This document shows positions 3,768 through 58,587 of a stretch of 64,000 bases of DNA, in pieces. Below the pieces are notes generated by a model. That model was given only the letters and a program-made list of their open reading frames with translations, ran no database searches and was not told the DNA's origin. The translations under genes were made by a program, and so were the position numbers. How positions within the stretch are numbered: the first letter of the stretch is position 1; each line of letters starts with the position of its first letter. Source of the DNA: Schmidtea nova (lineage: Eukaryota); assembly GCA_044892505.1 (NCBI GenBank), contig CM097883.1, positions 408,456,001 through 408,520,000 on the forward strand, read 5' to 3'.

Positions 3768-4090
3768 CTCTCTATATTGTGCAAAAACACCTAAAAAGCC
3801 ATATTAGGGCTATTACTTTCGACAGATGGATTACACCAAGGGCGACTACAGTTGAGACCCAGGCGGATATCCTATCGACAGAGCATTCGGTAGAATCAGG
3901 AATAGTGGATGCGGTACAGCCAACATATCCCGCTCAACCAAAACCAAAAAAGAGAAATCGCTTAGGAGCGAAGAGGCGTTGGGAACGAAGGGCGTTTGCC
4001 GAAAAGATGAATATACAGGTTGACCTGTTAAGTGGCCTGTCGGAGAGACAATTGATAAACTTAATCGATACGTCCGTTTATATTAAATAA
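3768..4090 (+). pseudogene. 5'-truncated copy of unassigned cassette ORF2 (coiled-coil/basic protein)
   Basis: HIRAITFDRWI and KKRNRLGAKRRWERRAFAEKMNIQVDLLSGLSERQLINLI align with LIRTSTFDRWV...RNRLSAKRR...IEVELLSGLTEKQLLAVI (17.5-17.8 kb) and KRKRISQKRRRQKKLFAQRLQTQVDRLSSLTELDLLAEI (22.3-22.5 kb). Confidence 0.7.
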
Positions 4091-4210
4091 TTGTATTTAT
4101 ATTTTGTACATGACAATTAATTTGTGAGTGAATGATGGGTATGACAAAGCTGTATGATGAAGAATAGTTTGATGAGAGTTTAAAACGAAGGGACATAGAA
4201 TAAATCACTG

Positions 4211-4390
4211 AGACCTTCTATCGGCCAGAAAGAACCCTCAGGGGCAAGAGGGGAATAGTCACTGCGGAGTAGCTTACCTGCCCTCTTGACCTACACTGGT
4301 TAGTACATTTCCAACGTGATGTGCAATTAGGTGCAAATCACGGGTACTATCGCAGGGTTATAACTTTTTATGTTGGTGGAGTTACCCTAA
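4211..4390 (+). ncRNA. Conserved two-domain structured RNA motif, copy 1 (unassigned)
   Basis: CAAGAGGG-GAATA-GTCACT-GCGG-AGTAGC-TTACCTG-CCCTCTTG (4245-4288), then CCAAC-hairpin-GGG...TGTTGG...CCCTAA (4311-4390). Stems covary with three other copies. Confidence 0.6.
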
Positions 4391-5213
4391 TAATAACATC
4401 ATTTTTAAAAACTCCATGTTAAACACCACTAACAAACCAACAACTATAACGACTCCCACCCGTAAGTCACATGACAATAAAATCATTGGTTTCCGGAGTA
4501 GTTATGTGGGAGGTGAGCATGTGAATTTTCCCAGGAAACGAAATGACGACAAAAAATCTAGTATCCATTATCTCATATCCGTCAATGTCAGAAGAGAGAG
4601 AAATTTAGCTAAAATAACAGACAGCAGGAAACGCAGTTAGTTAAGTAAATAATCAGGCTACTAGGATTAATCTAAATTTTCGTTGAATTCATTTCCTGTA
4701 GATGTTCCATTAAGCAGATAAAATTTAAATCAAAGTGCGAAACTTGCCCCTGTTGGTCTCTGGTGTGGACATGGATATTTAAATGACGACCTAGGGGGTG
4801 GATGTGACCCATACAGCGAATTTGATAATTTCAAAGATTTTCAAATAAATTATAAACATAATTCGATTGTAATGTTCGTTGATTGACAAAACAAGGAAAG
4901 TAGCTTTATTATTTGTAGTGCTTAAAGCAGTTCTTTTGATTTGAATTTTTGAACATTTATGACAATACGAATTTCAACCTGAAAACTTTTTATCTTATAA
5001 AAGTTTTTTATTCTTGTCTTAAAAAATTAAATTGAAACCAAAAAATAATTTTTGTAACAAAATATGTTGCAATAAGAAATTTTCATATTAAGGTTCTTAT
5101 TATAATATTACTGAAAGATTAAAGCAATTGTAAAATTTTACTTATTTTCAAATTCTAAGCATTGTTAGATTATCTCAGACAATTAGAAATATTTTTTGCA
5201 ATATAAAAACATT

Positions 5214-7744: not shown

Positions 7745-9109
7745 ACCGGAAAGTTTCTGCAGTTAGAAAAATTAATGCCATTCAAGTTTCTGCAGTCACA
7801 TTGATCAATGAATATATATTTAACAAAGACAAATAATTTTATGAAGCAAATTAATCATCCATATCATCGAGGAACTCAAAATAGTTTCCACCATGCTGGA
7901 TGCAACGTTGCCAACGTGCAGGGAGTTTGTTAATGCCAGCTGCGAAGAAATTTTCATTTTTATTCTCTAACTACGACTCTAGCTGCACTTGAACATCTTG
8001 TGCGCAGTTGAATGCCTTACCACGTAGAGCTGATTTAAGTGAGGAGAAGAGGTAGAAGTCTGATGTGGCTAGATCAGGTGAGCAGGGTGGATGTGGTACG
8101 ACATTGAGATGAAGTTCAGCCAGCTTCGCCTGAGTTAGATGAGCGGTATGTGGCTTAGCATTGTCATGCTGAAGGTAATGGTATCCATCCAACATTCGTC
8201 TGCTCCTTTTATCCAGCAAGCATCCTTCAAATTGTCAAGCAATCAGCAATAATGGTTGGCATTCATTGTTGCACCGCAAGGTAAAACATCCATTAAAATG
8301 ACCCTCCTGCAGTCCCAAAAAATTGTTAACAAATGTTTCTTGCTGGTAAGACTGCCTCTCACCTCGGTATGTGGTTCGCTATGATCGATGGTGTTTGCTC
8401 ACACTTCCATGCCAGTAGACCCAACTTTCATCAATGGTGATCATACGATGCAGGAAATTGTTTTTTTCATACATTTCCAGAAGTATTCTGCACACATCCA
8501 CTCTTTTTTCCTTTTGTGCGTTCGTTAAGAACTGTGGAATCCACACTGTTGAAAGATATCACTTTCCCATCTTTAGTAGATGACTTCTCACTGTCTCTCT
8601 TCCAACTTGTAACTTAAAAGCAATTTCTCTAACAGAGGCATGATGATTCTCATCAAGAATTGCTTCAATCTGGTCATCTATGTCACAGGAAGGTCGTCCA
8701 CTTCGTGCGTTGTCGTTTACGTCGAAATTTTCCGCCTTGAATTTGGCAAACCATTCATAGCATGTTCGAATACTCACTGTTCCTTCCCCTAGTGTGTTGT
8801 TGATTTCTTTTTCGATGTCTCTGGTTGATAGGCCTCGTTTCCAGCAGTAGTAAATTAGTTTTCTAACGTCTTCGCGAATAAAATCCATGATTTTTTCAAT
8901 TTAAAGCCAAATTCTGCATAAACGGAAAAAGACAATATAAACAAATTAAACAGTTTCATTAAAATGACATTGATATTCTTAGATTTTTTAAACTAAATTT
9001 CGTTTATAACATCAAAAATTATCCTTCTTTGTGTCCACAAAATTTGAAATATATAATATGCATAGATCTTGAATGGCATTAATTTTTCTAACTGCAGAAA
9101 CTTTAAGGT
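7745..9109 (-). mobile_element. Full-length mariner (Mos1-like) element with a disrupted transposase (8888 to ~7850)
   Basis: TA-flanked TIRs ACCGGAAAGTTTCTGCAGTTAGAAAAATTAATGCCATTCAAG and CTTGAATGGCATTAATTTTTCTAACTGCAGAAACTTTAAGGT. HTH ORF (YEWFAKFK...RSGRP), LQHDNAKPH and HPPCSPDLATSDFYLF motifs; frameshifts and stops. Confidence 0.92.
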
Positions 9110-11696: not shown

Positions 11697-12620
11697 TTAA
11701 GATTTGTTGACAGTAACAGTAAAAGCAGGTATAACCGGAAACTGTCTTCTGTTTAGCGCGAATTGAAGGTTATTGCCCTTAGGTGCTAGGTCTACCCGAG
11801 GTATGTTCACGATTTGGCCTTGATTACACACTGAAATAATTTCTACTGTGATTGAGTAGCGCTGAAGACTCCTAACAATCAAACAGGTTCCATTGCAAAG
11901 TCTTCTTTTTGCTGAAAGATTACGAATCAAGTTGATAAGGACTCCTGGTTTTTGAATTAGTTGATGAGGCGACATTCCAAAAAGACAGAGAGTTTGTGTT
12001 TAAATATTCTTTTGGATAGTTGGTGGCATCATTGTGATCATATGAGACGATCTAGTCTGTGATGTAGCCGATACGTTCGTTGCCGGGTTGCTGCTTAATT
12101 ATTTCCTTGTTTATATTTAAGCAAACATTATTAGCGGACGCCAACACCACTCTTTTTATTAGTTCATCAGTCGACAGTTGTTGGATATTCTTTTCGTAGA
12201 TGGTTTCCACAATCGGCTTGAAGTTACTATGTCCTTGGTAATTTCAATTGCTACATCAGGAAGTCAATTAGTTGTTTGAGTTGTTCCAGATCCAATTTCC
12301 AAAAGCCAGTTGTGGAAATCATGTTGACCTTCACTTCTCATGTTGTTTGTAATTGATAACTTTATAAAACGTTTCCACAGATCGGGCGATTTTATGCACC
12401 ATTCGATAATGTCAACTTTGCTTCCACGAGTTACTACAGTTAACGTTTGTCGAAAATCTCCTCCTGTCATTATTAATTTCTCTCAAAACGGTATTTCCAC
12501 TTTTAAAAGTTCTTATAAAAATTGATCGATACAACTAGAACCATGTTTATCCGTGACTGTACATTCATCTATTACACCGTGTTTCACTCAGTAACATCAG
12601 CTATAATGCACGTGAATGTG
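11697..12620 (-). pseudogene. Helitron PIF1-like helicase remnant
   Basis: Motif II (IDECT), GGDFRQTL...NNMRS and RNLSAKRRLCNGT...IPRVDLAP...RRQFPVIPAFTVTVNKS, broken by frameshifts. Confidence 0.85.
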
Positions 12621-13440: not shown

Positions 13441-13901
13441 ATTTACCCATTGAAACGGTTAACACATCTGAAAGTTTGCATCTGTTTTTTGTTTTGTGTG
13501 TTCTTAGATTTTTTCTATCTCTTTTTACGACATACACTTTTTTCATGCATTAAGAGTTTTTATAATATAAGATAAAAATTACCAATACCGAATGAAAACT
13601 TACATTGATGTTAAATTTTGATTTTACATAGCTTAAGAGATTTATTTTGTGATAGACAAAGCGGAAAAAATAAATAATACACACAAACACACACACTATG
13701 AAAAATGCATGCAAACATTAAAAGGTAAATTATTTTACGCGATTAAGAGATCTATAATAAATTTATTTATTTTTTAAATATAATTTTTTGGGTAAATATT
13801 TAAAATATTTCCTAGGGGAGTTGTCGAAAAAATGGATAAATAACGTCGTAAATTTTATTTTAATATAAAATTTCATATATTTCAGTTACTCTTAAACTAT
13901 G

Positions 13902-14560
13902 AAAACAGGTGTATAAATGAGTAAAACAGCAATGAATAAGGTACATGTAGGTGTGCATTTTTAATAAATGGTTAATTGATATATTATATATAAAACTATA
14001 TTTATATATTGAACTAATTTTTTTTTCGATTTTCTTTAATTTTGTTTTGTTTATCATTTTTCAATTTTTCTCCATCATCCTTTTCATTTAATAATATTAC
14101 ATTTCAATCGATCAATTGATTCAATTTAACGCATAATCCAAATTGATAATTGATACCATTCACTTTATACATATATTTTTTTCATCACTCACATAAAAAA
14201 TTATTTCTTAACTGATATACTATAGGTGTATAAAAACAGGTGTATAAATGAGTAAAACAGCAATGAATAAGGTACATGTAGGTGTGCATTTTTAATAAAT
14301 GGTTAATTGATATATTATATATAAAACTATATTTATATATTGAACTAATTTTTTTTTCGATTTTCTTTAATTTTGTTTTGTTTATAATTTTTCAATTTTT
14401 CTCCATCATCCTTTTCATTTAATATTATTACATTTCAATCGATCAATTGATTCAATTTAACGCATAATCCAAATTGATAATTGATACCATTCACTTTATA
14501 CATATATTTTTTTCATCACTCACATAAAAAATTATTTCTTAACTGATATACTATACTTTT
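13902..14560. repeat. Tandem duplication, 331-bp period
   Basis: AAAACAGGTGTATAAATGAGTAAAACAGCAATG... at ~13902 and ~14233; the two units are near-identical. Confidence 0.9.
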
Positions 14561-15197: not shown

Positions 15198-15916
15198 AAT
15201 CAAATTAATTCACTAACACAACAACTATCTAAACTCCAAAATGAATCACAAAATTCAAAGAAAGAAAAGCTAGACAAGCAAAAGAAAAATGTTTGTACTA
15301 AACAAAAATGATTACATCAAATAATAATGTTCTCCTTTAGACCAACCTTGGTGCCTCGTCAGCAAATGACCAATTAACCGATTGCACTAAAATCAAAAAT
15401 GAAATTCAGTACCCCATTATCGAATGTACAAATATCATAAACGGTGTACGATATTCCCCATTTATTTGGAGAATTGAAAATTTCTCCGCTAAAAAAAATA
15501 CAGCGAAAAATGTCTGCGATTCGTTTATTTTAAGTGATTCATTTTATTCACACGTGAATGGATATAAACTTTGTTTGACTCTTTTTCCTGACGGTTCAAA
15601 TGTGTCACAAAATGATTGGCTGTGCGTTGGATTTCATTTGATGCAAGGTGAATACGACAAGGATTTGATTTGGCCAATGATGAGGAATGTGACGATTGGA
15701 TTGGTTAATCAGAAATCCAATGAAAGTTATGTGAGCGAAACATATAATGTCAGTTATGCTCCTGAAAATAGTAGATACAAATTTTTTAAGCCAACTTGCG
15801 GGTTGAACGAAGCTTTTGTTGCGTATAAATTTGTCAAATTCAGTGAGTTGACATCCAATGGAAATCTGTGTAGGAAGGAATGTATTGTTATCAAATGCAT
15901 TGTAGAAAAGAATTAA
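15198..15916 (+). CDS. TRAF-like 3' half: coiled-coil exon 15198-15290, 50-nt intron, MATH exon 15341-15916; inverted duplicate of the gene at 27014-27717, no RING exon seen
   Basis: CAG/GT/TAG splice sites, all phase 0. MATH motifs PFIWRIENF, SDSFYSHVNGYKLCL, GEYDKDLIWP. Confidence 0.82.
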
Positions 15917-16486
15917 ACGAATTCGAATTTCGAATAAAAATGGATTTGATATCATTTTTCTTGATTTTTTAGCAGATTTCCATTTTAATGTTTAATATAG
16001 ATTGGCATCATTTGTCTTTTTTAATGGAAATATTTTTGTATTAAATGGTAAATAGTCAAGTAAAAATATTTGGAACCGGCCAATTTGGATATAGATGATT
16101 TGGATAATAAATATTAAATAGAAACAACTTGCACGAGAAAGTTTTTCTTGAAAAATGTTTTTTTTGAAATAATGTTTTTAATTGATGAAAATATTTGTGT
16201 ACGGCATTTTTGAATGCTGATTCCAAAAAAGAGGTTAAATTGTCCCTCACGTCCGGTTTTTTTTATATAAAACGATATCGAAAATGAGTAAAAAGGTTAT
16301 TTTGAAGTAAAATCAGCCTAATGTAAACAGACAGTCAAAGATAATTGAATTACACAAAACTGTAAATGTTACTACTGCTAATATTCGTGAGTATAATCAA
16401 AAGTCACATTAAAGAGTTTCTAGATAGAAGTGTTGGTTGTGCGTTGAGAAAATTCAAATTAATATTGTTATTAATCAACGGTCACG

Positions 16487-16613
16487 CAACAACACATAAA
16501 TGTTCCCTGTGCGTATAACCGTATATACTTTACTGTATACACGTTGGTACTGTATAAGACAGTCTAATGCAAGTCGGCAGGTGAGCGCCTTTGTTAGAGC
16601 TACTCCCGGCTTG
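16487..16613 (-). ncRNA. Conserved structured RNA motif, copy 2
   Basis: Minus strand CAAGCCGG-GAGTA-GCTCTAACAAAGGCGC-TCACCTG-CCGACTTG (16613-16570), then CCAAC-GTGTATAC-AGTAAA-GTATATAC. Confidence 0.5.
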
Positions 16614-17170
16614 TCATTCTGGAAGGTTTCATGCCGCAGATAAAATTTCTTACGCGTCTAAATATTTTTTATTTCCAAAGGTCCTTTAAATTTATCAATA
16701 CCTAACTTTTAATATCAATACTCATCTTATTTAAAATATTGCACCTATTTATCCTAAGAATCTTTATCGTTTTCTCCCTACCTCAACTGACTTATAAAAT
16801 GTGGTTCGTAATCCTACTATTAATGCTTCTATATCGTATATACTTTCATGCTATTTTCCTGTTTAATGCTCTTATGTGTTATTGTGCGCTTTAAATTGTC
16901 CTCTTTTTGTATTTATTTAAATTTTGACGTATTTAAGCAAAAATCGAGCCTCACTTTTTCCAGCCCAACAGAAGAATTATTATTTTGCAACAAACAAAAA
17001 TTACCCATTAATACTTGGATATGCCCGGCCTTCTGTAAAGATTCTCAAGAGACTATGGTCTGGTTTTATTTCATGTCATGTCTCTCAAAGTTCATTTCGT
17101 CAAGAATTATCTTTACTTTTGCTTGTTTGTTGGTTAGAATTTCAATGGAGGTTATACTTGATTTTATAGG

Positions 17171-17344
17171 TTAGGGTAACCTCGCCAACATAAAAACGCT
17201 TCCCCGCTGACACCCATGATGTATCCCTAACTACTCATCATGTTGGAACTGTGTCAACGTTGTGAAATGACAAGGCAGGTGAGCAACCTTGCGGCTACTA
17301 TTCCCTTGTTTATTCACGAGTCCACTACTACCGTTAGAAGGTCT
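17171..17344 (-). ncRNA. Conserved structured RNA motif, copy 3
   Basis: Minus strand AGACCTTCTA, CAAGG-GAATA-GTAGCC-GCAA-GGTTGC-TCACCTG-CCTTG, CCAAC-ATGATG...TTAGGG...CATCAT-GGG...TGTTGG...CCCTAA. Confidence 0.62.
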
Positions 17345-17539
17345 GTGTGGTTTTCTTCCGGTCCCTAACATTAATTTAAGTTCATTAGGTCTAGGGTGCA
17401 TTTACTTGCTTTATATCCTTTGGCCGAAAATGAATTGGTTTTTTTCAATCATTCCATTTACTTAAATTCACATTCATTTCTCATACATTCGTAATACTAC
17501 AATTGAACTATGATACTTTTATTTCAATTTATCAATACT

Positions 17540-18077
17540 GCGGGGTTAATAACAGCCAGTAATTGTTTTTCGGTAAGACCGCTCAGGAGCTCTACTTCGA
17601 TCTAGATTCGTTCTGCATATTCCCTTCTTGCCTTCTTTTAGCGCTTAACCGATTCCGTCCTTTAGTCCGTTTAGACCCTTAGGTTTTCGGAGTACTTTCT
17701 GGGGGTTCTGGATTCGAGTTCAAAATCATCTCCGTCTGTACGCCCATCGAGACGCTGCTTGATTTTACCCATCGATCAAAGGTGCTGGTTCGTATGAGTG
17801 GCCGTAATTGCTGTTCAATGAACTCCTTAGTAGAAGCCCGCAGATAATTACTTAATTCCAACTTTACAGCGGCCGTCTTTCGCGCTTGCTCTTCCGCTAT
17901 TCTTTCGGCACGATATCTAGCCTGTTGTATGACCTTTACTCGTTCCGGGTGGAACCAAGTCGATTTTATTAATTGATGTTCGGCATCCAACTGCCGAAAT
18001 CGACCTTCAAGAGCCTTGACTCTTTTCTTAGCTTCCTTAGCCTCTGCTCTTTAGTCGTGGGTCTTGGCGGCACACAT
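17540..18077 (-). pseudogene. Cassette ORF2 (coiled-coil plus basic C-terminus), with stops and frameshifts
   Basis: TTTCAG acceptor immediately before 18077. WF...R.K...RA.R.AE...K.EL..YL...IE..LR..IR...WV pattern shared with 21883-22476. Confidence 0.7.
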
Positions 18078-18333
18078 CTGAAACGAGAAAATGAGTAGAT
18101 TAGTATGTTCTCTGCAACCACATTTTTCACGCATCTCGCTCATTCTCATAGTTTACATATCGTCGTCATTTACAATTGTGCACAGTTAAGTCACGCCCCG
18201 AGGTCATTAATCTCTTTAACGACATCACCCCCTTTCTTTATCTCATACATTCCAATCAACTACAAAATTCACAAAATCATTTATTTATTATTCATGAACA
18301 GTAATCAGTCTATCCCAATGATGCGATGAATTT

Positions 18334-19055
18334 TCACAGATATTCGACCAGTTCTTGGTCATAGGCTCGATCCATTAGTCCTCTGCCATTGGTTTGATAG
18401 ATTTTTGTGCAGGGCTCCCAGCAAAGTCCATCTTGGAAGATGAATACTTCCCATAGTCGAGTTTCTTCCTCCCACTGCTGCGGATTCATATTCCTGTTTC
18501 CTGGGGCATTGAGATACGGATGGAGTGTACCCGTGTAGATACATATTGGCTCATTCAACAGGATATAGTCTAGCTGGCGGAATTCGGGCCCTGACATGGA
18601 GTTGAATGACAATACCCATCGGGGTTTGGCCTGGTGGTCCTCGAATTGGATGAACCATTTCGGCTGCCTCGGCACTTGAATGCTTAGCGATGTCGGCCAC
18701 TATGGGTCACCTTCCCACCGATTTCGGGTTTTGAAGAATGATGTTACCGGTTGCACGTCTGGATCTATATGGCTACGGTTCCACTCCCTGAGGTGGCGTT
18801 CTGCCACTTTTCTGATGGCTTCAGGAATTGTATTTGCATCTACGAATGTTAGTTTGCGCGACTGAGCTCGCAAGGGTCGTGACTTTCTTTTTTCTGGCAT
18901 CTGAATGATGGTGGCTATTAGTTTTCATCTAGTTTACGTCATCACCTCCACATTCATCCACTCTACTCATCATTCCTCATATTAGGTCATTCATTCATAC
19001 ACCATCAATAAAAAGTTTTACTTACCAGTACTTCGATTTTCAGTTGATTGTACAT
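18334..19055 (-). pseudogene. Cassette ORF1: short exon 19055-19026, intron, then 18900-18334 with one in-frame TAG
   Basis: The listed ORFs 18700-18900 and 18334-18675 share a frame. Donor GTAAGT at 19025, acceptor CATTCAG directly before ATG at 18900. Confidence 0.55.
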
Positions 19056-19439
19056 TTTGTTTTCTGATGTTAATGGTTTATGGACTTAAGAAATATTTTG
19101 GAAAATATTGAGCGATCGATTTTCTGGAGCAACACAAAAAAAAGTGGCAAAACAATTTCTTGCATGAATAAATAGCAATGGCTATAAATAAATAATGTTT
19201 GGGTAATAGTCGCATGTGCACGTATAAATGTTCGCCACCACTGGTTTAAAGTTTCAAGCAACCTGAATCTTTCAGTTTTCTTTTCATTACGATTTTTATA
19301 TAATTGAATGCAAAATATGCTCTTTTATTTTCATAGATTTATAACTCTTTCCGTGCTTTTTATATAGAAAAATTGTTCCTGTTATTTAGTAGAAGACTTT
19401 TTATTTTGAACACAACAAAATTTAAAACTTAAATGATGT

Positions 19440-19630: not shown

Positions 19631-19867
19631 TCGCGACTCAAAAAGCCCAAAAAACAACAAAAAAGAAAAAAAATCATTTTTATTTCTTGCTTCTTTCATT
19701 GAGAAGACATTGATAGAAAATACATCATTAATATTTTTCGAAAAACATCAACTTGGAATAAAAAATAAAATAGGCAACCAGGCATGAGCCGGTGCAAATG
19801 ATATACAAAAAAATGACACGGCAAAAACAATCAATTTGGCATACCAAAAATACAAAAATTGATAATA

Positions 19868-20445
19868 GTTTCTCTGGATAAAATTAATACTTTATACTAA
19901 TTTTAAATAAGTCAAATTTTATTTTTATGACAAACATTTTCTTTTGGAATTTTCTCATTTAAGTTACTAAAATTAAAGTAATTAATTATAAAATTCTTTG
20001 AATTTTTTAATTTTTAAATTACTTTCTTTTATTTGGTGTTTCAGAATACTTTTTTTATTTTTTTATTATCAAATCTTTATATTTTATTTTAATTTTAACT
20101 ACTTTAATTTTTACAATTTACTTTTAAAATTTTTCTTATGGGTGATAGTCGCAAAGTTTCTCTGGATAAAATTAATACTTTATACTAATTTTAAATAAGT
20201 TAAATTTTATTTTTATGACAAACATTTTCTTTTGGAATTTTCTCATTTAAGTTACTAAAATTAAAGTAATTAATTATAAAATTCTTTGAATTTTTTAATT
20301 TTTAAATTACTTTCTTTTATTTGGTGTTTGAGAATACTTTTTTTATTTTTTTATTATCAAATCTTTATATTTTACATTAATTTTAACTACTTTAATTTTT
20401 ACAATTTACTTTTAAAATTTTTCTTATGGGTGATAGTCGCAAAGT
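19868..20445. repeat. Tandem duplication, 288-bp period
   Basis: TCTCTGGATAAAATTAATAC at 19871 and 20159; the units are near-identical. Confidence 0.9.
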
Positions 20446-21239
20446 TCCTGTTTGATGTTGCATCATTTACGTATAGCCGGGGCTGAGGATAATTGATTAA
20501 ATAAAATAGCGTTTCATGGACACATGGTTTTCTAGTTTTAATCTCGCAAAGGGTTGTTTTCCTACCACTCAAGAACGGCAGCGCATGGGATATGTAGTAA
20601 CTCTCAGACAATATATTAGGACGAGGGGGAAATGGGGAAAATAAATGGATTCCGAACATAATGACTAATAGAATTTACCCTGCAGAGGTAGACACAGATT
20701 TTCTCAAGTTTATCGCGCACCACTTTAAATCCACACGACATTTACATGACCAAAATCGACTGATCGGAAGCAGCCGAATAAATTTTCATACTGTAAATAG
20801 AACTAATCGATATTTTTCATCAAAAATAAACAAATCAAGTGAGGGTAACTTAAATGTCCAAACAATAATTCAGACACATGCATCAAAAACTTCATAGTAA
20901 TGAATGTCAAGTCCTGAACTCGGATACAAACAGTCGATTTGATTATACACAATTAACGCTAATAATCCTGATCGCTTTAGATAGCGCAGGAGTTTAACGA
21001 GAATTTTTATGATATTTATCCGGATCGCTGTATATAGCGCAGGGAATATATGAAAATAAATTAGAAATTATTCCGATTGTGGTATATCGCAAAGGTGTTG
21101 ATTGAACCAGTAGATTTTTTGTTCTTTTTCCAAATATTTGATTTCTCGCTATAATTTCATGGAGTTTTCTATAAAATAACTCAAAATCTTGATTAATCAA
21201 CCAGTTAATTCGTTAATCCTATTATGGTAATAATGCAGA

Positions 21240-21589
21240 TGGAACCAAATGATGTAGAGAAATTCCTAACTACTCATAGAGAGTCGTCCAAATCCGTCAA
21301 GGCCGGACCCTCTAGGATACTTCGAATGGGGCTAAAAACCTTACCATCATCAATACTGCGGACCGTAAATGCACAAATGTTTAAATGGCGGAGGGAATTT
21401 GGAAAGAAATGCTCGTTCTCCATTTGGAACACCGGCAAGGATCTCGTGTTGTATCGGGGAGGCCCGGGGTGGCCGATTTCCAACCAGAACTACTCATCAA
21501 AGTTTGGACGACTGATAATTACAATAAATGACCGAATCGAGAACCAGCTAAAACTGTTTATTGGGGACATATTCCGCAAAGTGAAATAG
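21240..21589 (+). pseudogene. Cassette ORF1, second copy
   Basis: AATGCAG acceptor directly before ATG GAA CCA. Weak colinear similarity to the 18.9-kb ORF1 (TLPSSI..W.R vs TIPEAI..W.R; GGPGWP vs GDP*WP). Confidence 0.45.
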
Positions 21590-21882
21590 CAGAATTGGGC
21601 CTGCAATTATTGACATCGCCTCGGCCCCTTGGAGATGAATACGAACAGAGCCAACCGAAGTTTTCCCTGAGCAATTTACGTCAATCACCAATAAATCAAG
21701 GGCTTCATGTTGCCTATGTTTTTAGAACAAATTTTCCATTTCATAAATCCGTGTGTATTAGTACAAAATAAATAATTGCGTTTAACTTTCTTATTTTGTT
21801 TCTTGTATTAAGCAGTTATATGCATAGGATCAACTATTCTGAACTAAAATGATAAAATAATCATTTACTTAACTATTTCAGT

Positions 21883-22476
21883 ATGAACTCAGAAACTCAT
21901 CAACAGAAGGAGATCGAGAAGTTATGGTGAATCAAACGGGCTCAAGAGAAAGAGCTGGTTCAAGTAAAAGCCCAGTTATCCAAAGCTGAGGCGCAAATAA
22001 CCTATCTACGAAAAAGTTGGTTTGCTACTGCCAGGATGAAGGATCGAATTTCCTGAACAGAAAGGGCACAACGAACTGCAGAGGACTACAAGTTGGAGTG
22101 GAAGGCCACAAAGATCGAGTTGAGAAAATACCTCCACTCGGTAACGACTTTTTACATTGAAAAGGAGTTGAGGTCGCAAATCTGACCCGTCACTTATCAA
22201 AGTTGGGTGATGGAGCAAAGAACCATGTGCTCGATTGGTACGGATGTCGAAGGACTATCAGATGGGAAAATAGACAACGCCCAGCAGGCTACGAAGGACG
22301 TTCCCACGAGCAACACGCATCTGAAGCGAAAACGGATCAGTCAAAAGCGCCGACGTCAAAAGAAACTTTTCGCCCAGCGGCTCCAGACCCAAGTAGATCG
22401 TTTGTCGAGCCTAACGGAACTCGATTTACTAGCCGAAATCTTTCCACCAGAAGGAACTTTCACCGAATTGTTATAG
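21883..22476 (+). pseudogene. Cassette ORF2, 197 codons with three in-frame TGA and no frameshift
   Basis: TTTCAG acceptor at 21876-21881. TGA at 21928, 22054 and 22183. Aligns along its length with 18077-17540. Confidence 0.72.
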
Positions 22477-22649
22477 TTAATAAAACTTTATACGAAGTGT
22501 GCCGAGATCTTTGTTGTTATTTGGGAATCCTCTCTAATTATAATGCAATTAAACAAAACGTAACTAATTGTAACAATCACATTTTTGGTAAAGCTAAATA
22601 ATAAATAATAAACACATACGAAATACATTAATGAATTAGTAAATAAAGC

Positions 22650-22837
22650 GTCAGACTTCCTAGCGGCAGCATGAACCCGTGAACATAAATGGGGAGTAGT
22701 TCTAGTAATAGAGCTCACCTGCCCATCATTGTTCAATCACCTTGCGCATCACCAACTTGGTTATATAGGGAAATAATCAAGGGCGCTCGAGTGAGAAAGA
22801 AACTACTTATGCATGATCATGGATGTGGTATCCCTAG
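22650..22837 (+). ncRNA. Conserved structured RNA motif, copy 4
   Basis: ATGGG-GAGTA-GTTCTA-GTAA-TAGAGC-TCACCTG-CCCAT (22689-22726); CCAAC-TTGGTT..TAGGG..AATCAA-GGG...TCCCTAG. Confidence 0.6.
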
Positions 22838-23220
22838 CCACTATTAGAAATTATGGTCTAACCCCTCCATGAACCCAGCATTTGTACGAAGTCTTAAAAT
22901 GAAAAGTTCTGTAATAGAAACGCAGTGATCAAAGGTGAAATAAAGAGATAAAAATGCTAATATTTTCTATATAAATTAAATTGAAACGCTTTTATAATTT
23001 TTGTAAATTGTTGTCACTTTCCCCGATCCCTAAAAAAAGACTTTTTTTAAATTGCAATTATTAAAAATAATTTCTTAAATAGTTTATTTCTTTTTTAAAC
23101 GAATTGTCGAAATATGCCTAAGAATAGCAAGAATTGCTAACTATATATCCGCATTAAAAAAAGATGAAAATACAAAATGTATAGAATGATAAATCGCAGA
23201 ATTAAAGAAAGGAAATAGCG

Positions 23221-26927: not shown

Positions 26928-27013
26928 ATATTAAATATTAAAATGGAAATCTGCTAAAAAATCAAGTAAGAAAAATGATCCCAAATCCATTTTTATTGGA
27001 AATTCGAATTCGT

Positions 27014-28730
27014 TTAATTCTTTTCTACAATGCATTTGATAACAATACATTCCTTCCTACACAGATTTCCATTGGATGTCAACTCACTGAATTTGACAAA
27101 TTTATATGCAACAATGGCTCCATTAAAATCGTAAACTGGCTTATAAAATCTATATCTATTATTTTCAGAAGCATAACTGACATTATATGTTTCGCTAACA
27201 TGAATTTCATTGGATTTCTGATTAACCAATCCAATCGTCACATTCCTCATCATTGGCCAAATCAAATCCTTGTCGTATTCACCTTGCACCAAATGAAATC
27301 CAACGCACAGCCAATCATTTTGTGACACATTTGAACCGTCAGGAAAAAGAGTCAAACAAAGTTTATATCCATTCACGTGTGAATAAAATGAATCACTTAA
27401 AATAAACGAATCGCAGACATTTTTCGCTGTATTTTTTTTAGCGGAGAAATTTTCGATTCTCCAAATAAATGGGGAATATCGTACACCGTTTATGATATTT
27501 GTACATTCGATAATGGGGTACTGAATTTCATTTTTGATTTTAGTGCAATCAGTTAATTGGTCATTTGCTGACGAGGCACCAAGGTTGGTCTAAAGGAGAA
27601 CATTATTATTTGATGTAATCATTTTTGTTTGGTACAAACATTTTTTCTTTCTTTCTGTTCTTCTAATGATTCATTTGTAAGTTTATATAGTTGTTGTGTC
27701 AGACAATTAATTTGAGTCTGAATAAATGGTTATTAAATTTAAATCAAAGATTAAAATGTAACAGAAAATAAAAAATGCAGAATTTCTTAAACTTTCTTTG
27801 TTTGCTAATTCATTTTTTCATAGAAATTATTTAAATAAGGAGAATATATATATATAGTGCCTCAGACATTCCAATTTAATATTTACATTAATTTAATAAT
27901 TAAATTATTAATGTGTTATTAATTTAAATAACTTCTTTAAAAAAACCTTGTTTAAATATTCATAAAAAATTCACTTTTTATCTTCTCAAAAAATCACTGC
28001 CGAAACATTCCAAATAATTCCAATTATCGAATCTGCTCTACAATCCGATGCAATTACCGATAAACTCAAGATGGAAGAGTAGTCAACCTGAAATCAAATT
28101 ACACTAATTTCAACATAAAAGTTGATATTCCATTTTACATATACGATGTAGTAATGGAGAACAAAAGCATTCGTACTAAACTAGACTTACTATTATCTCT
28201 TGTTTACAGTAAAAACAACAGTCAACAATTTTGTTTTGACAGAAGACGGCTGTTTATTACACCCAAATGGTACCTAGGCAAAGATGCTGAAAACTTTACA
28301 ATCAACAATGTTGAAATATCGATACAATGTCAACTACAATTTTGAAGAATTCCAAAGAATATTTCCAAATGATCTATATTGTCTTTAACAATATTCAGAT
28401 ACTCATGGCGCAAGGAAATATCAAGAGACAGTTTTTAACGGGCTTAGTCAGAAAGTAGAGGGATTAAAATTGTATCAAAGCTTTCTAAAAATGGAAAACT
28501 TCGAGATATTAGGAGGATATTCTACTACAATTACGAGAGGAACAAATGAGAATGGAACCGAATCAACTTTGTTGTACCGTGTTCTCAATAAAAACAGTCT
28601 CATATCAGTTTATAGACCAGATCAAATCAATCTATTAATCGGTAGAGATATCATAATGAAGTACAACAACAAGACGACTAAATCCGTTGATTTGAATAGA
28701 ATGTATTTTGTCATTAATCTTTTCCTTTTC

Positions 28731-28769
<39 letters not shown>

Positions 28770-29771: not shown

Positions 29772-31024
29772 AGCTGATATATTTCAAAGAGTTAAATAAC
29801 GGTCTTTTATCTGATATAAAGGAAGAGTTATTTAATTGTTGCTAGGCAATATTTGACCAATTTTTATAAATTCATTTCCATAATAGTAAATATTTTCTTT
29901 CGCATTTCCATTTTTGCAAAAGATATATTTATAAATAAATATATAAATAATAGATTTTTCCATGAAATTCATTTTAAATATATATATTTCGGCGTATAAG
30001 ACGACCCTTAAAGTCAAAAATCACCCTTGAAAATTGTGGGTCGTCCTATACAACCGATATAAAAGAAAGTATTACAGTACAAGATGTATTTATACTAATT
30101 TATGCATATCTAAAACCCATCAAATTCATCACCATCATCACCGTGATTGCTCTAATTTTGTACCTCGTCTTATCTGACGGTCGCCTTATACGCCGAAATA
30201 TACGGCAAATTCCCAATATTCACGGACAACTCAGTTTTGTAGGTCAAGTGCAAATTAATAATTTAATATAATAATTATACTATTAATATATCAGTAAAAA
30301 TACTTCTTTTTTGCTAAAGGTTTTCTTGAAATTTTTCAATTCATTAGTCAAATTTGCAACTTCAATTTTCAAATATTTGACGACATTTTGATTTTCTTTA
30401 GTTTCTCTTTTTAATGTTTCAATAGCTTCCTCATTTCTACTGTTGGTAATTCTTGCATTGTCCAATAATTTCTGTGTGATAAGAATCACTTCGTCTTTTC
30501 TCAAGCACGCCTCTCGTAAAGTAGCGATATCATTCTTCATGTTCTGAATGGAATCCATCAACAGTGATGCATGATTCCCGTGTTCAATATCCATGTGATT
30601 GTTAATTGTGCCAATAATGATATCCCCTTTACCGCATCCTATATCAAAATATGGACACTTGATTTGATGGGACTTGATGTGGATTTCCATTTTTCTTATC
30701 TCGTCTTTGAATTGACAAGATGGATCTGGACATTTCACAGATACTTTTGATATTTTAACGTTTGCTACATGGTCGACTTGTACGTCAAATATGCTTATTA
30801 ATTGCTCTTTACAATCCTCTCCTTTGCCTGGACACAATTTTTTTTTTATATTCTAGATATTTCTCAATACAATTATAACAATATCGACAGCCACAACAGC
30901 TCTGATGGGCATTAACTAAAAGTCTTTTACACATGACACAAATTAGATCACGGGAGTTTTTTGCTGTTACTTCAAAATTATACTTTACCAACAAATCCCA
31001 TAAATTATCGTGTTTAGAATTCAT
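27014..31024 (-). CDS. TRAF-like gene, RING-ZnF-coiled coil-MATH: exons 31024-30304 (1-nt frameshift in an A10 run at 30838-30847), 27717-27640, 27589-27014; ~457 aa if corrected
   Basis: RING CVMC...CCGCRYCYNC, TRAF zinc finger CPDPSC..H..CPYFDIGC, coiled coil. Phase-0 donor after KKE at 30303, CAG acceptor at 27718, 50-nt second intron, intact MATH exon. Confidence 0.8.
29150..29650 (-). mobile_element. Diverged partial copy of the Tc1-like element at 40684-41762
   Basis: Ends TTAATTTATGCTCTTTAGTG-TA (left TIR-like); internal similarity to 6170-6410. Confidence 0.6.
29980..30205. mobile_element. pogo/Tc2-like MITE
   Basis: Inverted termini TATATTTCGGCGTATAAGACGACC and GGTCGCCTTATACGCCGAAATATACGG. 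Confidence 0.65.
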
Positions 31025-41993: not shown

Positions 41994-42293
41994 TCAAAAA
42001 TCGAACAGTTTTGTGTATTTAAGTAATTTTTTATTTCTGTTAGATTTGAAAAATAATTTTTTTTCTACATAATCTAACAGTTTGTTTCCATTTTCTTCGG
42101 AAATCTTTGATTTTTTGCCACCGATTTTCCCTTTTGATATAAAGCCAATTTTTTTATACTTAACTACTATTGCTTTTATTGTGTTTTTAGTAATTCCTAA
42201 CAGTCTACCGAATTGAAAATAATCCTCCCCATTTTCCATGGCCTTCACGATTTTTACTTTGTCAGCTTCTGAAATTCTGTTACAATATAACAT
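41994..42293 (-). pseudogene. Tc1/IS630-like transposase N-terminal HTH fragment
   Basis: RISEADKVKIVKAMENGEDY...GITKNTIKAIVVKYKKIG...GGKKSKI pattern; truncated. Confidence 0.7.
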
Positions 42294-42986
42294 TTTTAAA
42301 ATTTTGACAATTAAAACCTATTTTTTCTAGTTTTTTTCCAAACCAAGCCCTGTAGAACTTGATTGCCCTTCATTAAATGATATTCTATAAAAATTTTGAT
42401 TTAATGACATATTGAAAAAAATAATATTTACAAATTTAGCTGGTTGTTTTCCCGAAAGCTTAACGTGGAGCCTTCAGAAATATCAAAATTGCTATCAAAA
42501 TTTAATTATTTTTATAATAAAAAAATAATTTTTACAAATTTGGCTGGTCATTTTCCCGAAAGCTTAACTTGGAGCCTTCAGAATTACCAGATTTGCTATA
42601 AAACATTTATTTAATTTTTAAATGAAAAAAACATCTTACAATATGCCCTTTTGAAATATATTTTTTTTCAATGATTTTGCTTTTAATTTCATTTTAAAAA
42701 TCGATTAAAAAAATTAAAATGAAGAAAATATCAACTTTTTTGTGTGCGTAAGATTTATTATTGTATGCTAGTGATTGATTAGATTTGCACCCATTAAAAG
42801 TTTGCATGGAGTTTTTACTATATAGTGCCTTTTTGTGGTTTACAAAATTTTTCTATCCTTTTTGTCTACCACATAATAAAGGATGTTAATCAATGTTAGC
42901 ACACGAATAACACACAGGTGAGTGTTTGGAATTTCTATAGTTTAATTTTATATTATAGGAGATGCTGCTCATCGTTATACGGTGTA

Positions 42987-43476
42987 ACAACTTATTACAT
43001 GACAACTCATCACATGACAACTCATTACATGACAACTCATCACATGACAACTCATCACATTACAAATCATTACATGACAACTTATCACATGACAACTCAT
43101 CACATGACAACTCATTAGATGACAACTCATCACATGACAACTCATTACATGACAACTCATCACATGACAACTCATCAGATGACAATTCATTACATGACAA
43201 CTCATCAGATGACAACTCATTACATGACAACTCATCACATGACAACTCAGCACATGACAACTCATTACATGACAACTTATCACATGACAACTCATTACAT
43301 GACAACTCATCACATTACAACTCATCACATGACAACTCATCACATTACAACTCATCAGATGACAACTCATTAGATGACAACTCATCACATAACAACTCAT
43401 TACATGGCAACTCATCACGTGACAACTCATCACATTACATCTCATCAAATGAAAACTCACCATATGACAACTCATA
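42987..43476. repeat. 15-bp minisatellite (ATGACAACTCATYAC), about 32 units
   Basis: Direct reading; it produces the periodic HDNSS/MTTHH/SCHVM ORFs. Confidence 0.95.
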
Positions 43477-49330: not shown

Positions 49331-50365
49331 GAAAGCTAAATTTCGAGCATACAGATTACACACCCGAACTCAGGTAACTGCAATGAGTAATTAAACGCAA
49401 ATTACACATAATAAAGAAAAGTTATGAAGTCTCTGTATAATTTTGGTTACGGTAAATATTTATTTGTTTGTATATATTTTGTTATTTAAGAAATATTTCT
49501 TAACATATTGTTTTAAAAACTAATACAATTTATAATTCACTCGACTTAATTTTTGTTTCTAGAACAATATGAATTATTATTTACTCTTATTGTTTACTAT
49601 TCGATTCACGCAAAACGGAAAAGGATATATGATAAATTCTTTATTATATATTGAAACAGTTTCGTTNNNNNNNNNNNNNNNNNNNNNNNNNNNNNNNNNN
49701 NNNNNNNNNNNNNNNNNNNNNNNNNNNNNNNNNNNNNNNNNNNNNNNNNNNNNNNNNNNNNNNNNNNNNNNNNNNNNNNNNNNNNNNNNNNNNNNNTGGT
49801 TAATAATATAATGTTACAAAATAAATTTTAAATTTTCATTTTATTCATTATATATAAAAAATATAAATATTTATGATTATTATATTTAGTTTTTATATAA
49901 AAATAATTTAAAATTTCTAAAATAGAACAAAATTGAACAAAGCAAAAAATGTTAATCATAACGTTTAGATTTTATTTTATTTTAAAAATTTATTTCTAAT
50001 AAAATTTCAATAATTTAACATTTTATTTTAAAATTTTTATTCATATTTAACATTTAAATTTTGTTATTTGACACGAAAAATAACCCAGAATAACTGGTGA
50101 AAATTTCATTAGACTCATAAAAAATATTGTGAATTTTTATTTTTAAGATAAATAAAATATAATTTTGAAATTACACTCATTTTTAAACGTAAATATAATT
50201 AATTTAATAATAATTTAATTAATTCATTTAAATATTATTTGTTTTATCGCTTCATATAAATGCATTATTATCATCAAATCGGATTAGATCAAAGTTTCCT
50301 ATTCGGTAAATATTTTATTAATATTAATATTTTCATAAATTTTTTGTCAATTGTTCTAGAGAGAC

Positions 50366-53300
50366 ATGAAGAGTTTATGGGAAACAATGAGAGAAATAAC
50401 CTTTGAAGGCTGCCAGCTAGTTACTAACGAAATGAAATGCATAATTTGCAAAAATATTCTGATAAATGCCCATAGCGGACCTTGCGGTTGTCTTTACTGT
50501 TTCGATTGCATCGAGGCTCACTTGTCAAAAGAAGTCCAATTTTGTCCTGGAAACACTGAGCAGTGCCAAGCGAAAAAGTTAAAGGTCAAAGAAGACATTG
50601 TCGTAGATCGCTCAACAAACATTGTAATTTCCAAACTGTTGGTGAAATGTCCGATGAAGAATTGCGAATTCAAAGATGAATTGAATAGAATCGAGAACCA
50701 CTTGCGAATCTGCAACATGAGACGAGATAAATGTCCTTACTTTGAGATCGGATGCAAAGAATCAGAAATCGCAACAGAGGATTTGAATGATCATATTCTA
50801 CTTGAACTTACCAACCATTCGAAGCTCTTATTGGAATCTATGGATATTTTAAGAAATGAAGTCGAATCGTTGAAACGAGACGTGGAAAGGTTACGAGTTG
50901 AAAAGAAGTTATTGGCTGATGAAATTGAACTCTTAAAGGTCAATGGAGCTGTGAAAGAAGTAAATATTTTTATTGGGTATTTTCGAACAAGTTTTTTCCA
51001 ATAATGTTGACTGATTGTTGGCACTGAAACATTTTATCCTTCAAAGGTCTCAGGTTAATAAACATTCAGAAAATGATATATCCTTGATTTGTCATGCTTC
51101 TAATACCTTTATAATCTCCCCTTCCTTATATTGGCTCAATACGACAAGACCGCTGATATTTACACCCTAAACCTTAATAGGTCCTTGACTCTCCTCTACT
51201 GTTATGGTATCATAGCGTGAATTCGGTAAGTGAATCACAAAATAATCAAAAATAAAATGTAAAATGAGAGGAAGTCTTATACTGATATGAAATCAACATT
51301 CTTAAACTTGTAGAACTCGAAGAGATGTCTAAACCTTCTAAGGAATTCAGCAAAAATATACTTTCTTTAATATTTTCGGGTTGTTCAAAAGGGTGAGTAA
51401 AAGTTAACTGAAAATTAAATAATGAAATTGAAAAATATACAAATCATAATTTTCTGTAGAAAAGTGAAAACATGTAACAAATGAAAAGAATAAAAACAAA
51501 TTTAATAACGTTATATTTGTTGGGGTTGCATAAATATGTACAAATAATGGGTTAAAGAGCAAATATTTAAATGCAAAACATGTTAAACTGAACATTTAAA
51601 TTAAGAGCAAAACTAAGTAAAAAATTAATTATAATCAAAAATCAATATTTTCCGGGGGAAATGATATAACAAATAGAAAGTTAAAGACGAATATAATAAT
51701 TAAGTAAACTTTATGAAAGTCTTCAGGCAAAGGAATCACAAAAAAAATAAAATTTAATTAATTAATTAATTATTCAAAAAAATTGTTGATAATGTGACTG
51801 ATGAATTGGCGGCCAATCAGATTGAAGTTCAATAGTGGATAATTAGATTTTCTTTAGAGCTCAGAAATCACGATTGAGAGATGATCAATAATTGACAGAT
51901 TTGGTGAGTCGTAATTAAAATAGTCAACATAGTGGAAATTCTGGTGATTTTTTAGATTTAGTTAATAATTTGGTCTATGAAAACCGGAACATCCACCATA
52001 CCAGACTGGGGAAAAATCTCATAACAAAAAAAGAGAAAACTTAGAGAAACCGGACAAGTATTAAATGGAAAATTTATTGTCGAAATAGTAAATTTTCAAA
52101 ATTAAGTTAGGAAAAAAATTATTGTTTCTTCTCAAGGCATCATTTGTTTCAAATATCTCTTGAGTCGTTCACATTTGGTAAACTCATTCAATTTTGAAAA
52201 GTGCTGATATTGATTTTTTGTGCAAATTTGTTATAAAGAAATGAACTTTGCTACTTATTGGCCACTAAATTATTTTGATTAAACAAACATACTGAGTCAG
52301 TGCAAAATAAAACCCAACAAGTGTAAATATTTCAGATAGAAAATCCATTTTTCCATGACTATTAGGTTGTCCGGAATGAAATGTCCGAATAATATATAAT
52401 AATTTTAAATCATTATAACTTTATATAAAATGTATTTCTTTATTTATAAGGCGCTTATTTAAAATTCAAATATTAAGTAAGATTTATAATAATTTCATTG
52501 CTATAAATTTCAATTTCAAATAGAAATGTACAAGTTAGAAAATCATGACTTGAGACTTCTTTATTTATATGAGTAGAAATCGAAGAACAATTCATTTGAG
52601 GCGGATAGGAATATTATTAATGCTTTTGAGAGCAATACAGAATGAAAGAACGGTAAAACTGTATTTTAGCGTTTTTTATTATTGTTTAGTCGATGCAAAT
52701 TTATTTCAAAATTATTTCAATTTTAAACTGTTAAACCGTCAACATGGCCGGTCGACCGCGCAATATGCGAATTAATATAGTTAAACCCGCACGTATTATT
52801 CCAACTGTCAACATTGAAGTTGAGCAATGGCGAATGATCATTCTGTCTGTCGAAATCCAAACCGCAGCAGCCCTGGAACCACTAATACTTCAGCACATAT
52901 TACCAGGGACACATATTATGAGCGATGGTTGGTCCGCGTACAGAGGCATCTCAGGATTATCCTATGGCATTTACATGCATTCCGTTGTTGTGCACGACCA
53001 ACATTTCGTCGATCCGAACGATTCTTGACGTTTAATCTACATTTAAGTAAATCCCCGTGTTTGTGTGTTTTTATTTACATAAACTTGTAATATAAACATG
53101 TATTTGTCTTTCAATAATAAAAAACGTTTTTTTTGTAAGGAAAAAAAATTTAATAAAAAACGCTAAAATACAGTTTTACCGAAAGAACTATTAGAAGTTG
53201 GTTTAAAAAATTGGTTGATAACGGAGAAATTGATCTCGAAAATATGCCTCGCGGTAGAACCAATATCAAGCTGTCGGAGGAAGATCTAAGTGAAGCTGTT

Positions 53301-54245
53301 GCTCAAAATTCAGCAATATCTGTTTGATGAAATGGCTATAGATCTATCTATCTCAAAAACAACCTTCCATGACAATATAAAGACAATCGATATGGTCAAA
53401 ATGCTTCAAAAATGGGTCCCACATGAATTGACTGAATTGCAGAAATTAAGCAAAATACAAACTTGCTTATCCCTTCAAGTCCGACTTCGAAAGTCATCTT
53501 TTCTTAATAATATTATTACCTGCGATAAAAAATGGATTCAATATGATAATCGTAAGCAGTCAGGTGAATGGTTGAATAAACATCAATGCCCAAATCAGTT
53601 TCCAAAACCGGAACTTCACCAAAAGAAAGGCATTTAAGTGTTTATATCAATAGAAGGAAGTTCAAAGATTCGGAGGAGATAAAATTGACAGTTATCACTT
53701 TCTTGGACTTCAGAAATGAGACTTTTTTAAAGAAGATATAGAAAAGCTCCCGCTATGATGGAAATAGTGTATTAATGATGATGGATCTTATTTTGGTTGA
53801 ATAATAAATGTTTAAATATATTTCTACGTCTTTTGAATTATAACCCATTTAGCGGACATTTCATTCCGGACAGCCTAATACCAGCAAAATTAAACGATTA
53901 AAAATGACAACCAAAGAAAATTAATTGAATTGAAAATTAGCACTTGTAAAAGGCACTGCTGAACATTCGTGTTGTTTTGGTAAAAGATTTTTTGATTTTT
54001 GTCTTTAAAATGAAAATATATGAAATCAATAATTTTCATATTAATAATAGTTCTCTAAATACCAAAGAAATTCTGATCTATAGTCATACAATTATTAAAA
54101 TGAAATTTATTCATATAGACAAAAAGAGATCAAAAGTGAAACCAAAAGATAATTATGATAAAATAAATGAAATTGAAGAAAAAAAGATCAAAAGTGATGG
54201 ATAACAAAGATTTTAATAATTATTGTGCCGACAGAAAATTTATCG

Positions 54246-58200: not shown

Positions 58201-58587
58201 TTTTTCAGTGAGGCATTTTACACGCATAGATACGGATACAAACTTTGCTTGAGGATTTATCCCATCGGAATTGGGGAAGGAAAGGATACTCATTTGTCGG
58301 TGTTTTTCCATGTCATGTCCGGAGAGTTTGATGACATGTTATCGTGGCCTTGTAAGTTTGATATTACATTCCAAATTCCCGATCAAGAATCGGGATCGTT
58401 TCATGTGACCCAGTCGACCAAGTATGGAAATAAACCGAATTCATCCTCGTACCGAAAGCCGATCAATCACAGAAATATTGGAATTGGCATTCCGAAATTT
58501 ATTGGACTCGAAGAATTAAATTCCAATCTCAATTTGAGGAAAAATGACAAACTATTCATAAGATGCACCATAAACATGAAATTATAA
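50366..58587 (+). CDS. TRAF-like gene, RING-ZnF-coiled coil-MATH, ~459 aa; exons 50366-50959, 57712-57825, 57873-57938, 57982-58587
   Basis: RING CIIC...PCGCLYCFDC, zinc finger CPMKNC..H..C..CPYFEIGC. Phase-0 donor after VKE at 50960; 47- and 43-nt phase-0 introns. MATH motifs FLWIVENW, FSEAFYTHRYGYKLCLRIYP, HLSVFFHVMSGEFD..WP, GIPKFI. Extra small exons inside the 6.75-kb intron cannot be excluded. Confidence 0.85.
52362..53878 (+). mobile_element. Internally deleted mariner element interrupted by a Merlin insertion
   Basis: TA-flanked TIRs TTAGGTTGTCCGGAATGAAATGTCCG and CGGACATTTCATTCCGGACAGCCTAA; WVPHEL and ITCDKKWIQYDN motifs. Confidence 0.9.
52652..53180 (+). mobile_element. Merlin (IS1595/ISXO2-like) deletion derivative, 529 bp
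   Basis: TIR GGTAAAACTGTATTTTAGCGTTTTTT and its inverse; 8-bp TSD GAAAGAAC; transposase remnant HILPGTHIMSDGWSAY...HDQHFVDP. Confidence 0.9.
54070..54540. repeat. Penelope family B pLTR remnants, partly inverted, with a degenerate hammerhead at ~54386-54415
   Basis: GATCTATAGTCAT and AAAGATCAAAAGTGAAA..GATAATTATGATA blocks; ACACTTGATAAAGACTGCCGAAATATTGT. Confidence 0.65.
55407..56263. mobile_element. Solo LTR (857 bp), Ty3/Gypsy type
   Basis: TGTT...AACA termini, 4-bp TSD GTAG on both sides, internal 17-bp tandem repeats. Confidence 0.75.
57258..57624. mobile_element. AT-rich palindromic element (367 bp) with ATGTGGTG termini and a perfect 13-bp TSD
   Basis: CCGCTGTGCCGAA at 57245-57257 and 57625-57637; same arms as 44092-44960. 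Confidence 0.85.

Follow-up and report, generated by a model that had tools for sequence, protein, structure and literature searches.

What kind of genetic element carries a pair of open reading frames, each placed directly behind a splice acceptor, and what might the encoded proteins do? The question is raised by a 64,000-nucleotide stretch of the Schmidtea nova genome (hereafter the window; assembly GCA_044892505.1, contig CM097883.1, positions 408,456,001 to 408,520,000), in which an initial annotation made from the letters alone had recognized three diverged copies of a two-ORF cassette. We consider it fairly probable that the cassette derives from the 3′ part, now decayed, of a Burro-like long terminal repeat (LTR) of ~3.2 kb, in which each of two conserved genes sits behind a splice acceptor. 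ORF2 may be a Rev/Rex-like regulator of the element's RNA.

The three copies, designated A, B and C, are homologous. Profiles built from natural reading frames, with close relatives of each window copy included, match ORF2 in copy B at 17527–18044 (E = 7e-56 and 1e-13, in two frames), in copy C at 21934–22446 (E = 4e-57) and in copy A at 3779–4084 (E = 1e-36). The corresponding ORF1 matches are at 18376–18903 in copy B and 21266–21735 in copy C. As a check independent of the profiles, direct alignment of the C-terminal halves of ORF2 from copies C and A gives 28% identity (E = 4e-11). The ORF2 motifs said to be shared are present, except that copy A lacks the N-terminal ones because it is 5′-truncated and copy C has Lys where Asn is expected in the basic patch. 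Similarly, the proposal that both ORFs start right after a YAG acceptor in both long copies is accurate for copy B and for ORF1 of copy C (ATG 21239), but the ORF2 ATG of copy C (21883) lies one base after the YAG. The proposed splice donor behind a 10-codon exon is present in copy B.

The units reach beyond the cassette as first delimited, to boundaries at 17120 (B), 22880 (C) and 4442 (A), and only the 3′ terminus is retained in each. Similarity of copy B to its relatives spans 19081–17117, with the 3′ terminus at 17120, and its 5′ part is absent both from the window and from the 10 kb to the left of the window. In copy C the 3′ terminus is fixed at 22880, whereas 20426 is the extent of the remnant and not a mapped 5′ end. 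All copies in the window are inactive relics, broken by stops, frameshifts or truncation; in copy C, ORF1 is frameshifted and ORF2 contains three stops. The segment at 19082–19244 replaces the 5′ part of copy B, and similarity in the closest relative, L002, breaks off there as well; the end of this segment resembles a hAT-type terminal repeat.

Table 1 Features of the LTR-derived copies in the window.
Feature	Position	Strand	Description
Copy A	3774..4442	+	LTR 3′ fragment of a diverged family: ORF2 3′ half (3779–4090), module, terminus
Copy D	16431..16970	-	Solo LTR with an internal deletion, from a sister family that lacks the ORFs; similar termini and module; flanking 4-bp duplication
Copy B	17120..19081	-	3′ ~1.96 kb of a ~3.2-kb LTR; lacks the 5′ part (promoter and leader exon)
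Structured RNA module of copy B	17149..17359	-	Close to the 3′ end of the LTR; a pair of stem-loops containing internal loops, and possibly a pseudoknot
Poly(A) hexamer, canonical	17518..17523	-	Directly 3′ of the copy B ORF2 stop
Copy B ORF2	17524..18077	-	ATG 18077 directly after YAG; stop at codon 9 and two frameshifts; ~185 codons in relatives
Copy B ORF1	18334..18900	-	188 codons; ATG 18900 directly after YAG; premature stop at codon 67
Mini-exon of copy B	19026..19063	-	Predicted; in-phase 10-codon start, ATG 19055; GT donor 19025; likely acceptor 19065–19064
Copy C	20426..22880	+	Remnant of an LTR from a third family; contains ORF1 21239–~21735, ORF2 21883–22476, module, terminus 22880

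A search of the same genome with ORF2 of copy B returned 7,453 first-look candidates, which is not a copy number; identities among the 150 that were scored are 64–88%, the self match excepted. When extended, copies define a ~3.2-kb unit that begins with TG, ends in CA and is flanked by target site duplications (TSDs) of 4 bp. An automatic scan gave seven valid solo pairings once two mis-paired rows had been excluded, and in six of them both the termini and a 4-bp TSD are present; three further cases were recognized by eye. Some of the LTR 3′ ends are followed by a primer binding site (PBS), which is presumably complementary to tRNA-Pro, and a search for a tRNA gene matching the PBS found none. 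A PBS search that assumed a 2-nt spacer gave no matches; the actual spacer is longer.

Using PBS-bearing copies paired with internal 3′ ends, we obtained five candidate elements. Three are complete two-LTR elements with TG…CA termini, TSD, PBS, polypurine tract (PPT) and ORF1 and ORF2 in both LTRs, which are 99.0–99.9% identical within each element; the LTRs of the other two candidates are damaged or deleted. One complete element is 29.6 kb long and contains a frame of 5,089 codons, and a TRAF/MATH ORF lies downstream of this frame. Pfam matches in the internal region of this element include TRAF/MATH and, within the long frame, zf-CCHC, a Monjiviricetes fusion protein (E = 2e-72, upstream of RVP), RVP, RVT_1, RNase H, integrase and ankyrin, and the domain order PR-RT-RH-IN, taken from Pfam positions in this one element, is that of Ty3/gypsy (Metaviridae). 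BIR, BCL2-like, SUMO-like and dUTPase-like domains gave no Pfam match at E 0.001 or 0.1 in the frames scanned; BCL2- and ubiquitin-like stretches were seen by eye. Giant gypsy-like LTR retrotransposons named Burro/GYPSM1 have been described in planarians (PMC6431247), and the three window copies are decayed remnants of LTRs of such Burro/GYPSM1-like Ty3/gypsy elements, an assignment made by size, domain content and the published description. Families A and C are tied to gag-pol indirectly, through termini, TSD, module and one partial PBS: a family C relative has both termini and a 4-bp TSD, and in 1 of 24 family C relatives the terminus is followed by the start of a PBS.

These results bear on the suggestion that the cassette is a separate mobile or viral system. 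A pol-less independent unit, or a coiled-coil module of the Penelope/Terminon type, would account for the dispersal of most copies with no pol nearby and for the many alignments that end at variable 5′ positions. However, TG…CA ends, 4-bp TSDs, PBS and PPT, and paired copies around gag-pol argue against such a unit, as does, for the Penelope/Terminon type, the lack of a hammerhead or any other Rfam match. We therefore regard this explanation as very improbable in general, and for family B an independent pol-less unit is refuted by the two-LTR elements. The retroelement-style derivation that the initial annotation also proposed is borne out by the LTR termini, TSDs, PBS, PPT and linked gag-env-pol that emerged when copies were extended in relatives; its separate system is replaced by the LTRs of an element of a described type.

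In the element comprising L119:4465-5001 and L160 (C2:88.37-88.42 Mb), the two LTRs share a deletion of the promoter, the leader and both ORFs, which leaves ~0.54 kb of LTR, 97.8% identical over 490 bp; the shared deletion is likely the product of a template jump during reverse transcription. At L030:2316-7576, a solo LTR of family B is nested within the 5′ part of one of family C, and both have a TSD of their own. Relatives of the ORF-less copy D are ~1.35–1.45 kb long, ORF1 or ORF2 matches lie inside the LTR in 0 of 13, and the sister family yields 2,135 first-look candidates in the genome; it is possibly a non-autonomous partner.

Both ORF1 and ORF2 are under purifying selection. Values of dN/dS are 0.13–0.25 for ORF1 (14 of 21 pairs with unsaturated dS) and 0.05–0.14 for ORF2 (8 of 27 such pairs), and shifted-frame controls give 0.94–2.7. 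The model of ORF1, computed for a natural relative, is an α/β globular structure (pLDDT 82.9, pTM 0.79). Fold searches with this model gave no match, with a best Z of 3.5, which is not proof of a new fold, and no homolog outside the genome was found by single-sequence search, by a profile search against 1.84 billion proteins or among PDB sequences. An NTF2/SnoaL-like identity, to which weak ESM Atlas rows pointed, was rejected because the structural Z is about 2. We read ORF1 as a second accessory protein, and the lack of a match for its fold makes it a target for structural biology.

ORF2 is modeled as long coiled-coil helices, a disordered linker, an arginine-rich helix and a short leucine-rich tail, the last of which may be NES-like, to judge by the consensus. 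No homolog outside the genome was found with the single sequence, the alignment, metagenome contigs or PDB sequences, and an ESM Atlas search with the tail gave no match. The arginine-rich patch is conserved among family members. In 1 of 36 members it matches Pfam REV at the cutoff, and three other REV matches fall on the coiled coil; the signal is marginal, and composition-driven matches of this kind are common. From these sequence features we tentatively read ORF2 as a Rev/Rex-like regulator, the most likely of the roles considered. A bZIP-like role is nearly as good: with the same LTR anatomy, ORF2 could instead be a DNA-binding transactivator or repressor of the LTR promoter, a reading we hold possible if somewhat unlikely. 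The basic patch also fits bZIP spacing, with Asn in 29 of 35 members and Arg eight places on in 29 of 33; Pfam bZIP_1 matches 2 of 36 members (best E = 1e-4), and ATF-2 is the best PDB match of one C-terminal 50-residue piece (E = 0.84). However, every bZIP match is below the curated cutoffs, the basic-to-zipper register is one residue short, the zipper is short and contains Gly, the model helix is broken near residue 168, and family C lacks the Asn.

A further explanation is that both proteins are cargo that interferes with the host, through anti-silencing or signaling, like TRAF, RING, BCL2-like and ankyrin proteins, and have no role on the RNA or DNA of the element itself. Burro elements are rich in comparable cargo, an ORF-less LTR family exists, and Burro is under PIWI control (PMC8532177). 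We nevertheless judge this unlikely: searches with ORF1 and ORF2 found no host homolog, and the conserved arginine-rich helix of ORF2 points to nucleic-acid binding or nuclear import.

Evidence for splicing is recorded in genomic DNA. Among 21 distinct ORF2 starts, 19 are preceded by a branch point, a pyrimidine tract and a YAG, and two are fused to the leader exon, one of these having come from a targeted search. A genome-wide pattern search for the leader–ORF2 fusion returned two loci, L214 (C2:273172239) and L215 (C2:313620713), and its reversed control returned none. In L214, compared with close unspliced relatives, the join falls exactly at a GT donor and an AG acceptor about 1.7 kb apart. 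In L215 the acceptor side is confirmed against relatives and the donor side matches the conserved leader end; this copy retains its 5′ terminus and is followed by a PBS. The two loci are 66% identical and therefore represent independent events. Because both lack the leader-to-ORF2 intron, spliced RNA must have been reverse-transcribed and integrated. Thus the earlier idea that one leader is spliced to alternative ORFs holds for ORF2, the only join documented among those considered, and may extend to ORF1. An ATG-led exon of 8 or 10 codons with a donor lies 115–127 nt upstream of ORF1 in 10 of the 15 distinct ORF1 loci listed. A genomic search for leader- or mini-exon-to-ORF1 fusions found none; it had no positive control and is uninformative. 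Four read runs placed on the LTR of a relative gave coverage throughout and no GT-AG joint among the joints listed, and are uninformative on expression.

A CCAAT-TATA set, a leader of ~90 nt and a donor are conserved in 13 LTRs, ~0.4–0.5 kb into the LTR. Of 16 ORF2 frames listed, 14 have a poly(A) hexamer that overlaps the stop or lies within 15 nt of it, and the remaining two terminate at premature stops. A YAG lies 1–3 nt ahead of the internal RING, TRAF and coiled-coil ORFs, and the first Met of gag has no adjoining acceptor. A second conserved block, seen at L146:3160-3330 and in relatives, lies in the first intron of the LTR just 3′ of the leader donor and is a candidate packaging or splicing-control element.

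These features suggest a model in which a single CCAAT-TATA promoter ~0.4 kb into the LTR would produce the ~90-nt leader. This could then be spliced to ORF1 or to ORF2, which has a poly(A) signal of its own; in transcripts that continue across the PBS, it could be joined to the internal genes (RING, TRAF and coiled-coil). ORF1 and ORF2 would then probably be located in R/U5, which implies a strong-stop DNA of about 2.9 kb. Alternatively, U3 may be very long, contain an internal promoter and include both ORFs, as it includes sag in MMTV, with genomic RNA starting at a second promoter near the LTR 3′ end. Such an arrangement would dispense with the 2.9-kb strong-stop DNA and is compatible with the intron-less LTRs. 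A coding U3 has retroviral precedent (PMC12789967) and BARE has two TATA boxes that feed distinct RNA pools (PMC3735527). The intron-less LTRs themselves cannot separate R/U5 from U3, since the LTR would inherit a splice made in either region. However, the sole conserved CCAAT-TATA set seen is the upstream one, no second TATA was found by eye, and the acceptor-led internal genes require an upstream donor, which the leader offers; we therefore rate a long U3 as rather unlikely.

That spliced RNA can be reverse-transcribed leads one to ask how a genomic RNA so large and so rich in introns avoids splicing and reaches export. Genomic RNA must usually remain unspliced because the LTR would otherwise lose its introns, and it would have to escape both splicing and early polyadenylation. 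Under the R/U5 model we predict, with less than even confidence, that ORF2, which combines an oligomerizing coiled coil, an arginine-rich helix and a leucine-rich tail, binds a structured element of the LTR and so favors export of unspliced RNA.

A candidate for such an element is the RNA structure that terminates every LTR family examined. No part of the LTR is better conserved than its last ~250 nt (88–95%, compared with 20–68%). An alignment of 24 sequences drawn from four families shows compensatory change at 15 of the 23 predicted pairs, and the covariation score is 0.425, compared with 0.18 for a shuffled control that ignores relatedness and at most 0.13 for slid structures. Thus the conserved RNA modules noted at the outset are real structures that covary across families. 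The internal loop is invariant, the pseudoknot helices are weakly supported (73–82% paired, little covariation), and single-sequence folding z-scores are modest (−2.3, −1.7 and −1.2). An Rfam search with the module gave no match, hammerhead included, and likenesses to spliced-leader RNA, U1 or ribozymes found no support and were set aside. The module is kept in the ORF-less LTR family and so need not be the target of ORF2. Together, ORF2 and the module make the question of unspliced RNA testable. The invariant core, for example at 17274–17283 (+) of the window, has a splice-donor-like word on the opposite strand, and splice-donor-like words similar to the core recur in the 5′ part of the LTR.

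Elsewhere in the window, exons recognized by eye are TRAF/MATH-like (970–1623, 15341–15916, 27014–27589 and 57982–58587) and RING-like (30283–30852 and 50360–51004), and 15280–15962 and 26968–27650 form an inverted duplication of 96% identity. The window also contains tandem duplications of 288 bp (19867–20442) and 331 bp (13898–14555) and, at 42987–43475, an array in which a 15-bp unit recurs 32 times. We take 7971–8900, 53290–53637, 41994–42317, 11697–11999, 61256–61888 and 28064–28769 to be fragments resembling mariner/Tc1 transposase, Helitron-type helicase, GIY-YIG endonuclease and the Piwi N terminus.

LTRs are normally regulatory, and here they contain two selected protein genes behind a predicted promoter of their own, so that solo-LTR formation spreads gene units through the genome. 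The class of the parent element has already been described. Burro1-4/GYPSM1 (PMC6431247) share with the present elements a length of ~29–30 kb, a polyprotein of ~5,000 codons, CCHC knuckles, an env-like region before the protease, RT-RH-IN, ankyrin, MATH/TRAF, tandem repeats and accessory ORFs. Unlike in that description, TRAF/MATH here is a separate ORF downstream of pol, and the frames scanned gave no BIR match. The text of the Burro section mentions no ORFs inside the LTRs, although its Figure 2A may show them. No account of the two LTR ORFs was found in the literature searched. The refutation that the initial annotation proposed, a match to something already described, thus applies in part, to the parent element. 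The Ogre elements of dicots also have multi-kilobase LTRs and extra ORFs of unknown function; those ORFs are described in the internal region (PMC6431247), whereas here they are in the LTR.

The closest parallels in organization are with complex retroviruses (PMC12789967). In these viruses Rev, Rex or Rem, together with a structured element, lets genomic RNA escape splicing. Like HTLV-1 Rex/RexRE, MMTV Rem/RmRE and HIV Rev/RRE, the LTRs described here combine a small spliced accessory protein that has a candidate arginine-rich motif with a structured element in or near the LTR. They differ in that ORF2 has no significant homology to these proteins, is larger, has a long coiled coil and lies wholly inside the LTR. 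As with MMTV sag and HIV nef (PMC12789967), coding sequence is duplicated in both LTRs; unlike sag and nef, the two ORFs follow a TATA and a leader that belong to the LTR itself, which would make even a solo LTR a full transcription unit. It is conceivable, if on present evidence doubtful, that Burro-like elements are the first Ty3/gypsy elements organized like complex retroviruses, with an R/U5 of ~2.9 kb that would encode a Rev/Rex-like export factor and a protein of new fold by alternative splicing from one leader, and with a dedicated response element in the LTR. If so, the host genome would contain solo LTRs by the thousand, every one of them a two-gene unit complete in itself.
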